This document shows positions 23,901-26,900 of a stretch of 64,000 bases of DNA, piece by piece (position 1 is the stretch's first letter; each line of letters starts with the position of its first letter). Under the pieces are notes generated by a model, which did not search any database, had not been told where the DNA came from, and was given only the letters and a program-made list of their open reading frames with translations. Source of the DNA: Euglena gracilis (Eukaryota); NCBI GenBank assembly GCA_039621445.1, contig CP154954.1:31830012-31894011 (forward strand), written 5' to 3'. The position numbers were made by a program, and so were the translations under genes.

Positions 23901-26900
23901 TCAAAAAGTTGGGACTGCTGAGTTTTTAAAAAAAACATGGTGAATGCCAACTTAGACCGGAAAAAAAAAAACGTAGACAACTTTTTTGCTCGGGCCATAT
24001 CTCCAGATTGGCGGGGAGTTGCGCGTAACCCGACGGCTCTGGAGAAACTAGGGATCGTCCCCTAACCTATAGGCTATTCACTTTGGGGGCCCGGAAATCC
24101 AATCACATCGATAATCCTCGGGTGCCCGGACCTACCCAGGGGGGGGGGCGGGGGGGGCGGGGACCAATTTACACATGGCATGAAGTGTTTTTGTGAACCT
24201 CAAAAATGATTTTTTTTTTCGGGCCCGAGTCGGTCAAGAAAAAAACCCAAAAATAAGACCCCGCTGAAATAAGACCCCATCCTTGTGATTGATGCTAGGT
24301 AATGTGGGACTGTGGTGTCAGGTGACATGACGCAAGCCGTCACAAGTCAACGCGATCGCGAGCAGGTAGATGAGGTGATATCACCTTCATCCCAACCACA
24401 TGAAGGTAACAAAAGACTGAGTATTGCTGCTCAATATGGAAAAAAGAACACTAGTTCTTAAAACGCATGTTATTCAGAGGCAACACCACACTGTGCCACA
24501 CGGCAACCTACAACACGCGACAATACACAATCATCACGTTCCACAAAACAATACTTCCTTCATTTCCCCTCGCTTAAAACGCAGTCGGTATCCCCTTTAC
24601 CCCCCACATGTCCAACGACCGTAACCTTTGTCCTCCGCCCGTGGGGGGGGGGTCGTTGGACAGGGTTGTGACCAAAAAAAAAAGTTCTCCGATCGGGGGG
24701 GGGGGGGTTGGTTGGACAAGGGGTCAATTAAAATCAGTGGGTACCCGCGACCCCCCTCCAAAAAGCCAAATTCTTTCTTCCGGCGCTTTGAACCAAAATT
24801 TTTGGGCAATTTTGACATTTTTTTTTGTTCAAAAAATGACGAAAATGGCATTTTGGCCAATTTTTGGCCAATTTTTGGCCAATTTTTGACTATTTGATCT
24901 GATTTTTCGGCCCGGCGCTCTGTGCCGGGACTGAACACTTGGCCAAACCTCCGAAAAGATGTCCTCCGACTGGGGGGTGATCGTTGGGCATAGAGGTCGT
25001 TGGACATAGGGGGTACACCCCTGACGTGGGCCGACAGGGCAGCAGTCAAGTGGAGAGCAGTCAGGCAGTCGGACTTGTCAGGAACGTCAGCAGGAAAACC
25101 GAGTGGGGCCCACAGGTCACCCGTCTCTGCCCACTGCAAAGCACTGGGACCAGGCACCTATGGTCACTTCCCATTTTGGTGCTCTGGTCGGCCCTGGTCG
25201 GCCCTGGTCGGCCCTGGTCGGCCCTGGTCGGCATTGGGGGTATCCGCCAAAAAAACATGTGAAGGGATGCAATGATTTTCGGAATTGTCTCGCCACGATC
25301 AAAAGCAAGTGCCCCATAAGGCCTCCATTGGCAAGCACCTTCGGTCACCCACCCCTTTGGGCCCCGCATCGACCTGCATCACCCTGCATCGCCCTGCATC
25401 ACCCTAGAGCCATCCAATAATATCCTATAACCAAAGACCAAAATTCAGGCACACAAATACAGCAGGGGCACTGGAAGGGTACTGCAAACACGACCACCTC
25501 ACCCTCCAGCACCCGCAGCTCCTCCAGCTGGTCCCACCGCTGCCTCTCCAGCAGCAGCAACCACTGCCAGTCGTGCTTCTCCCAACCACGCAGCTTCCTC
25601 CACTGAAAAGCCTTTGAGGGTCACACACCCCCGCCCCGCCTCCAACCTCCAACCAACCTTCCTCGACATAAATTCGCATTAATCCTTCCAAAGGCGATAG
25701 CATATCGGCAGCACACCACACCGCCTCTCCATTCACATCCTCTCAACAACATCCACAACACAATGCACATGCCACAACACTACACATACTTTCAACTAAC
25801 CCCCAAACCTCCCCCATCCCTAGCCTCCACAGGGAGTCACAGGGAACAGGGAGGGTCGGTACCAACAGTCAATGGGATAGCAGGTGGGGACCTTGGGCAG
25901 TAGTCACCCTCCAGGGGACAGAGGTCTGCACATCAGCAAGCATAGAGACATGCATGCACATGCTAGCTACAGGACCACAACAGACATAACCTTCAGCCAT
26001 CCAAAGGAAAAACCAGCATCGTGACCAGCGCAGCACCGTGAGCTCCAGGAAACCACACCTTCGGTCCAATCCCACCTCGCATCAGCACAGCAGCAGAGGC
26101 GCCCTGCATCAGAGCATGCTGGAGTGTTCCAGAGGGGAAAGTATAGGCCCAATATCCCCACTTCAGCCATTCCCATCGCCCAGGTCGGACCTCTGTCTCA
26201 AAAAACCAGCATCACCCAGCATCGCCCAGCATCCCTGTCGCCCAGCATCATCGGTGCTTGTCGGAAACTGCCGAATTCCTTCATCCATTCCCCGTCGGTC
26301 GGCCAACCACATGCAAGTCGGCCCTTGTCGGCCCTGGTCGGAACCCCCACCTACGGGGGTCCTGAAAACCATAGTCGGCCCTGGTCGGCCATGGTCGGCC
26401 CTGGTCGGCCTTGGTCAGCCCTGGTCGGCCGTAGGTGCCTGACTGGGACGAAAAGACGTTCGCCGGTGGGAGGGGCCGGCGCCATGCACCCGGCCCCTGG
26501 GAAGGCTAACAGTCAGATGGCCGGGCCACGGCCGCAATGCGGCCGCCGTTTCCTCGGCGGAGCTGCACACAATTGCTTGGACAACACATCCAAATCAAAA
26601 GATACAAAAAGTGGAGGGAAAGGTACTGCCTGCGCACACACACAGACACACACACACACACACACACACACACACACACACACACACACACACACACACA
26701 CACACACACACACACACACACACACACACACACACACACACACACACACACACACACACACACACACACACACACAGACACACACATGCACGCACACAGA
26801 CATGCAGAAATGCACCTGAAACAAGATGCACTTCCCGTCCATCCTCAAAACCAAAATATTCCAAAGCAGCGACGATGGGGTGATCCGTAGACAACGGGCG

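Follow-up and report, generated by a model that had tools for sequence, protein, structure and literature searches.

A CAG-ended transposon with 8-bp target-site duplications that fits the nonconventional splice code of Euglena gracilis

A stretch of 64,000 nucleotides of the Euglena gracilis genome (GenBank assembly GCA_039621445.1, contig CP154954.1, positions 31,830,012 to 31,894,011; hereafter the window) carries at window positions 25151-26441 an element of 1291 nt, termed copy A, within which the sequence can be read as a nonconventional (NC) intron core spanning CAG to CTG. Copy A is a true transposable element, belongs to a repeat family and has an 8-bp target-site duplication (TSD), and it agrees with every part of the published NC splice code on both strands. 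In our judgement it is likely to be a cut-and-paste DNA transposon, non-autonomous and from an abundant family, that can be removed from RNA, without a scar, as an NC intron. The TSD length of the CAG...CTG class, measured from DNA alone, is 8, which equals the 3 + 5 nt of the splice code established by genome editing. Because the two spacers add up to the length of the duplication, excision according to the code would restore the pre-insertion RNA.

The first-pass annotation of this DNA, made from the sequence alone, described an element at 25151-26441 with terminal inverted repeats (TIRs) and an 8-bp TSD. The description holds: the TSD is perfect, the outermost 10 nt (CAGGCACCTA at 25151-25160 and TAGGTGCCTG at 26432-26441) form an inverted match at 10 of 10 positions, and the extended ends at 12 of 13 (Table 1). 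Chance resemblance was considered as the source of the TIR and TSD and was rejected, the pair being perfect on both counts and the window-wide tally standing at 11 of 673 against a null mean of 0.72. Internal to the ends are tandem arrays of the 10-mer CTGGTCGGCC. This unit matches the window 16 times (0.01 expected), in every case within copy A or a second family member, copy B. The arrays run in the same orientation at both ends of copy A, inversion being confined to the outer 13 nt. The same annotation called the element a MITE (miniature inverted-repeat transposable element), a label that is apt for a non-autonomous, multi-copy TIR element and otherwise loose, since the 1291 nt of copy A and the 1430 nt of copy B exceed the miniature size of less than ~800 bp. 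None of the three open reading frames (ORFs) inside copy A matched a Pfam family.

Aligned together with their flanks, copies A and B begin to resemble each other exactly at CAG on the left and cease to do so exactly at CTG on the right. Their first 62 nt are 89% alike and their last 122 nt 75% alike, their interiors are unrelated and their flanks differ, the pattern of conserved ends in different surroundings that characterizes MITEs and other non-autonomous TIR elements. The flanks of copy B match at 6 of 8 positions, as would be expected of an older 8-bp duplication.

Four public runs (X1, X15, X21 and X24) were compared with positions 23300-26634. The X1 contigs, 1.19 Gb in all, are DNA-like; those of the unique flanks have depths of 17-41, and two of them halt exactly at the borders of the element, one ending at 25150 and the other starting at 26442. 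The element ends reach a summed word depth of ~4x10^5 in X1, a figure that marks a very abundant repeat and is not a copy number, and the loose ends at 25150/25151 in three runs among the rows listed, X1 not being one of them, bear many different flanks. One X1 contig joins 25215 to 26373 through 38 other letters, combining the left 65 nt and the right 69 nt of the element; a short member of the family, ~172 nt long, is thereby implied at another place in the genome. Comparison of the window with itself gave no duplications of at least 150 nt, and a metagenome scan with a 28-nt end pattern returned 0 loci. The interior of copy A at 25652-26099 has a depth of 0-6 in X1 although both unique flanks are at 17-41; the hole proves nothing, and the X1 source strain may have a different interior at this locus.

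The length of the duplication was measured over the window as a whole. Pairs of CAG and CTG lying 40-2000 nt apart, with at least 8 of the terminal 10 nt complementary, were collected after masking of microsatellites (n = 673); 8-nt direct repeats were counted with at most one mismatch, and 40 shifted offsets served as the null. Masking was needed because CA/GT microsatellites, long tracts of which occupy 17946-18130, 20438-20852, 26635-26802, 32963-33089, 44686-44990 and 53150-53510, swamp naive repeat statistics. Adjacent 8-nt direct repeats are found in 11 of the 673 pairs, against a null mean of 0.72 and a null maximum of 2. An unmasked version with spans of up to 6 kb gave 13 pairs with 8-nt repeats versus 1-3 at five offsets. 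At the other repeat lengths the observed counts were 3 for 6 nt (null mean 5.9), 6 for 7 nt (1.98), 1 for 9 nt (0.28) and 0 for 10 nt. The excess at 8 nt is specific to CAG/CTG, none of the eight other end pairs tested in the window showing it: the numbers with 8-nt repeats were 1/723 for CGG/CCG, 0/730 for CTG/CAG, 0/71 for CGG/CTG, 0/89 for CAG/CCG, 0/56 for TAG/CTA, 1/1026 for CAA/TTG, 0/488 for GAG/CTC and 0/976 for CAC/GTG. Several of the short elements (122-469 nt) have 12/12 inverted ends together with perfect duplications, for example those at 52471-52596 and 55377-55664. A check of ORF continuity over 12 other candidate elements yielded no frame resembling a known protein. Since no recognisable gene was found around the short CAG...CTG elements, they have the look of ordinary genomic copies of a transposon.

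The NC splice code, 5'-N3CDG-/-CH'GN5-6↓R-3' (the arrow marks the cut), has been worked out through knock-in experiments in E. gracilis (Nomura et al. 2025, PMC12501133). In that work the 5' spacer must equal 3 nt and the 3' spacer has its optimum at 5 nt, and fully synthetic 50-bp introns with the features of the code and paired ends were spliced (PMC12501133). On its minus strand copy A reads ..CGTCCC↓AGT CAG...CTG GTCCC↓AGT.., and on the plus strand ..CACTGG↓GAC CAG...CTG ACTGG↓GAC... A 3-nt spacer followed by C-D-G at +4 to +6 is thus present at the 5' side (AGT CAG on the minus strand, GAC CAG on the plus), and C-H-G at -8 to -6, a spacer of 5-6 nt and a purine at the 3' side (CTG GTCCC↓A and CTG ACTGG↓G, respectively). 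Just inside the CAG and CTG, the 13-nt inverted repeat, 92% complementary, provides the potential for pairing. With inverted ends, CAG...CTG is found whichever strand is read, and the code is satisfied in either orientation. Published work also reports weak junction preferences, with a pyrimidine before and a purine after the cut at both junctions and A then C at exon positions +2 and +3, the +2 A being conserved in 43 of 55 introns (PMC4770533); of the four positions concerned, copy A agrees with these preferences at two on the minus strand and at three on the plus.

Removal of 1299 nt, that is, the 1291-nt element and 8 nt more, yields an identical product in all nine registers. Among them is 25146-26444, whose excision had been said to leave a single TSD; it does so, as one of nine equivalent registers. 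No GT-AG, GC-AG or AT-AC ends occur in any of the nine, on either strand, so that the CAG/CTG geometry without GT-AG first noticed on the minus strand is borne out on both strands and in all registers. A conventional or U12 intron was rejected as an identity for copy A, and no register offers the GT/GC-AG site, derived from the element or from its TSD, that marks a spliceosomal introner.

The sequence of events that would turn such an insertion into an intron can be outlined as follows. A CAG-ended transposon with an 8-bp TSD would insert into unique, transcribed DNA, its subterminal arrays of 10-nt motifs being probable binding sites for the transposase. In the transcript the inverted ends of the element would pair, and the NC machinery would cut at a distance of 3 nt ahead of CAG and 5 nt beyond CTG, so that the next exon would begin with the purine. 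What is removed would then be the element and 3 + 5 = 8 nt, equal to one copy of the TSD, and the pre-insertion RNA would be restored. The target itself would have to supply one thing only, a purine at position 6 of the TSD as read on the transcribed strand.

From the window statistic, together with an 8-nt repeat published for a newly gained intron, most NC introns may have arisen from insertions of this kind. The proposal can be put more pointedly, namely that the asymmetry of 3 and 5 nt in the code is a ruler matched to the 8-bp TSD of CAG-ended transposons, and that most of the ~70% of Euglena introns that are NC descend from insertions; we regard the case for it as evenly balanced. Equally poised is the reading that the NC system would be an RNA-level device for scarless excision of that transposon class, with the pyrimidine and purine that flank both junctions representing the same duplicated target position. 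Several observations weigh against the account given for copy A. The published assay also tolerated a 3' spacer of 6 nt (PMC12501133). In the window a small excess is seen at a repeat length of 7 nt, and CGG...CCG and CTG...CAG, whose ends the code also accepts, show no excess of 8-nt repeats. The minimum-energy fold of 25131-26461 on the minus strand (1331 nt) leaves the ends unpaired, a result that is uninformative at a length of 1.3 kb.

Parts of this proposal are already in print, namely the origin from MITEs, repeats that resemble a TSD and, for a single new intron, a repeat of 8 nt. A MITE-like insertion was proposed as the source of NC introns when no transposon had been identified in euglenids (Milanowski et al. 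2014, PMC3935182), and a 2024 review calls CAG/CTG a TIR and notes TSD-like repeats at the junctions, its available text giving no length, superfamily or transposase (PMC11282704). The first-pass annotation was therefore correct that a mobile origin had been suggested in general terms, and the TSD-like repeats, too, were already published. Nomura et al. (2025, PMC12501133) found direct repeats at 84.4% of introns and called their origin unclear, the accessible text not relating the spacers to a TSD, and a paper on diplonemids restates the MITE-like idea (PMC12621601). Among open full texts (subscription papers and supplements lying outside this scope), none was found that links 3 + 5 = 8 to a TSD or names hAT in connection with NC introns.

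The newly gained intron 4 of gapC in E. agilis ACOI 323 has eight-nucleotide direct repeats, which its discoverers read as a product of break repair (Milanowski et al. 2016, PMC4770533). On that interpretation, 8-nt repeats in general would be footprints of double-strand-break repair with captured filler DNA and would owe nothing to transposition. We consider this highly improbable as an account of the repeats described here. Copies A and B share precisely bounded ends and subterminal arrays and differ in their flanks; the depth of the element ends is very high, and the flanks joined to them are many and different; and the excess of 8-nt repeats is specific to CAG...CTG inverted ends. For copy A a break-repair origin was rejected.

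Evidence that bears on splicing comes from X15, a run with 56 Mb of contigs in all, about the size of a transcriptome, its label as RNA being only a guess. One X15 contig (record 10; 942 nt, depth 9.53) covers 25068-25142 and then 26442-26558 with 0 differences over 192 nt. It skips 25143-26441, which is 1299 nt, or the element and one TSD. At ~26558 the contig departs from the locus, although the stretch used for comparison ran 76 more bases to 26634, and this constitutes a second joint. Neighbouring unique DNA at 23636-23971 and 24308-24979 has zero depth in X15. A spliced transcript would be expected to give a contig of this form, with two joints, and we infer that the joined molecule arose through RNA splicing. 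The CGG at 26558-26560, beside the second joint, would fit the start of a CGG-type NC intron with the TSD TTCCTCGG; a search of the window for the partner of this joint, assuming a CGG-ended element with that TSD, gave nothing convincing.

The transposon might instead be unspliced, the joined contig having come from a strain or allele that lacks the insertion. Judging by its perfect TSD and inverted ends, the insertion may be recent and could be polymorphic, and presence or absence of an intron between strains has been published for E. agilis (PMC4770533). A strain without the insertion would yield the same joined contig in the absence of splicing, and the joined form is a single contig from a single run of guessed RNA status. 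X21 and X24 are recorded RNA read sets, of which ~5-6% each was sampled; essentially none of the sampled reads fell on the unique flanks and none crossed the joint, which gives no verdict on either expression or the joint. From these two runs 64 and 68 reads were placed, all on repeat parts; 59 and 63, respectively, overlapped the stretch only in part. No back-joint between the element ends, as in a circular RNA, was listed in the RNA runs, where coverage was near zero. The empty-site explanation is nevertheless improbable. The second joint at ~26558 points to processed RNA and not to colinear DNA, the X15 contig is identical to the window along its whole matching length, and the X1 contigs break at both element ends, as a filled site would have them do. 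Sequences that conform to the code are, moreover, spliced when knocked into E. gracilis (PMC12501133). Splicing of copy A is, on this evidence, supported but not proven. The transcript check that the first-pass annotation proposed, for reads across the junction, is answered in part, by one contig of guessed RNA origin with exactly the expected joint, the reads of X21 and X24 not covering the locus. Its larger suggestion, that 3 + 5 = 8 makes scarless introns of hAT-type insertions, stands as to the arithmetic, the spacer sum being the measured TSD length, and depends for the splicing itself on that one contig.

The removal had also been said to join two open frames. Minus-strand frames 26415-26594 and 24597-25157 are both open and join as ..SFRP and SALQW.., but no homologue or Pfam family was found to mark them as coding exons. 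A protein search with the minus-strand frame 26445-26594 and the plus-strand frame 26442-26561 (two of the three open frames, longer proteins only) produced no scored match, the word-sharing candidates (73 and 1, respectively) all being unscored. The eight ORFs scanned around and inside copy A matched no Pfam family, nor did any of the 18 ORFs scanned in total, and Rfam gave 0 matches on the whole window. The "exon" at the flanks of copy A may be untranslated or non-coding RNA, a further point that counts against the intron interpretation.

As to superfamily, Ac/Ds, hobo and Hermes typically have ends that start with CAG and binding motifs in the subterminal region; the hAT terminal motif is YARNG, and hAT target sites follow the consensus nTnnnnAn or nnnTAnnn. 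The end of copy A, CAGGC, matches YARNG at 4 of 5 positions, and 7 of the 10 other elements in the window begin with CAGGG. The inverted ends of 13 nt are as short as those of hAT elements, and the duplications (8 of 8 positions in copy A, 6 of 8 in copy B, with the window excess peaking at 8) are of hAT length. Two results speak against the assignment: the target consensus is not apparent in 12 TSDs, a small sample, with T2 in 4, A7 in 2 and TA4-5 in 0, and none of the 10 longest ORFs of the window matched Pfam, so that no transposase was seen among them. An A at exon position +2 of NC introns would correspond to TSD position 7, where the Ac-type hAT consensus has A; such a preference was unseen in the 12 window TSDs. 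Judged by its ends and duplications the family may be described as hAT-like, without being filed as hAT, and its transposase would probably be hAT-like as well.

The unmatched consensus and the missing transposase would also suit membership in another superfamily with 8-bp TSDs (Merlin, P or some Mutator-like elements), in which case the hAT label would be wrong and 3 + 5 = 8 would hold all the same. Two Merlin families with 8-bp TSDs have in fact been reported in E. gracilis (PMC8101967). This alternative is unlikely, if far from negligible: published descriptions of hAT elements give them 8-bp TSDs and inverted ends of 10-25 bp (PMC3942097), and the CAG starts point the same way. Merlin in particular was rejected, for a terminal GG is conserved in its ends (PMC8101967), and in the present family CAG and CTG directly adjoin the TSD.

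Copy A departs from hAT elements in the fifth base of its end, which is C where G is usual, in the unseen target consensus and in the common orientation of its subterminal 10-mers. In maize, Ds is said to act as a de novo intron, as Giroux reportedly described in 1994. The likeness to the non-autonomous hAT elements Ds and Mar extends to the 8-bp TSD, short inverted ends, repeated subterminal motifs and variable interiors (PMC3942097). With the NC introns of euglenids copy A shares CAG at +4 to +6, CTG at -8 to -6, paired ends, the purine, the lack of GT-AG and the "slidable" direct repeats; it is unlike those described in that it can be recognised as belonging to a transposon family of many copies, has a perfect 8-bp TSD and has relatives outside genes (PMC12501133). 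Intron 4 of E. agilis gapC is likewise a young NC intron with 8-nt direct repeats at its junctions, unlike copy A in that the published account, so far as accessible, describes no repeat family or inverted-end element (PMC4770533). The introners of Micromonas pusilla and other algae are also TIR and TSD transposons that become introns, splicing removing part of the duplicated target, and they differ in using the spliceosome, with GT/GC-AG ends and one splice site borrowed from a 3-nt TSD (PMC11282704). Copy A, by contrast, has non-canonical ends and an 8-bp TSD, and the cuts would lie inside both TSD copies, at 3 nt and 5 nt.

The coordinates of copy A, copy B and the other candidate elements are collected in Table 1. 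The first 2.8 kb of the window (1-2800) are a long AT-rich satellite with a GC content of 0.29, strong GC skew and short units of the CATA/TACA type. A dispersed AT-rich repeat of 10-11 nt (TTTTGGCCA-type) occurs at 3230-4330, in the interior of copy B, at 22944-23235 and at 24851-24888, beside copy A, and has very high depth in X1.

Table 1. Features of copy A, its relatives and its flanks (window coordinates)
Feature	Position	Strand	Details
Left TSD of copy A, ACTGGGAC	25143-25150		8/8 match to 26442-26449; X1 contig (record 6) ends at 25150
Right TSD of copy A, ACTGGGAC	26442-26449		X1 contig (record 8) begins at 26442
Left TIR, CAGGCACCTATGG	25151-25163	+	repeat finder; 13 nt, 92% complementary to 26429-26441
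Right TIR, CCGTAGGTGCCTG	26429-26441	+	same repeat-finder pair as 25151-25163; 12/13 paired
Left subterminal array of CTGGTCGGCC	25184-25232	+	tandem finder; 4.9 copies, 100% matches
Right subterminal arrays of CTGGTCGGCC	26317-26430	+	tandem finder; 26317-26341 and 26374-26430 (5.7 copies)
Second inner 10-nt array, GCCCTGCATC	25361-25405	+	tandem and repeat finder; repeated directly at 26206-26233
Flank piece, putative exon	25068-25142		X15 record 10, contig positions 1-75, 0 differences
Flank piece	26442-26558		X15 record 10, contig positions 76-192, after which the contig departs
Copy B, 1430 nt	3115-4544	+	same ends and subterminal 10-mers, unrelated AT-rich interior; flanks GCCACGGG/GTCACGGT match 6/8
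CAG...CTG element, 126 nt	52471-52596		ends CAGGGTTTGATA/TATCAAACCCTG, perfect TSD GGCACGGG
CAG...CTG element, 288 nt	55377-55664		perfect 8-bp TSD ACCCCCCT
CAG...CTG element, 469 nt	28901-29369		TSD GGGTGAAC/GGGTGAAT
CAG...CTG element, 836 nt	22736-23571		TSD CTGCTGCT/CCGCTGCT; limits uncertain, reads pointing to another end of the repeat (loose ends at 23549-23552)
CAG...CTG element, 392 nt	4617-5008		TSD GTCTGGCC/ATCTGGCC; first 70 nt recur at 55281-55352
CAG...CTG element, 337 nt	29697-30033		TSD GGCAAGGC/GGCATGGC
CAG...CTG element, 167 nt	52229-52395		TSD CCCAGGGG/CCCAGGGA
CAG...CTG element, 122 nt	61300-61421		TSD CTCCCGGC/CTCCCAGC
Weaker candidate, 1149 nt	45084-46232		inverted ends 8/10, TSD GGAATTTT/GAAATTTT
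Weaker candidate, 1659 nt	49181-50839		low-complexity TSD TTGTGTGT next to microsatellite

The origin of the NC introns of euglenids, and the reason for their asymmetric cuts, have been a puzzle since the 1990s, and papers up to 2025 describe the origin as unclear and mention only "MITE-like" elements. The copy A locus puts forward a specific family of transposons, one that has defined ends and subterminal motifs, makes an 8-bp TSD, has copies outside genes and agrees with the published splice code. A TSD length of 8 = 3 + 5 would explain at once the scarless removal, the "slidable" character of these introns and the pyrimidine and purine shared by both junctions. A vague hypothesis of transposon origin is thereby given a form that can be tested genome-wide on published Euglena assemblies, and the family may provide a lead toward finding the transposase and dating the gain of introns in these organisms.

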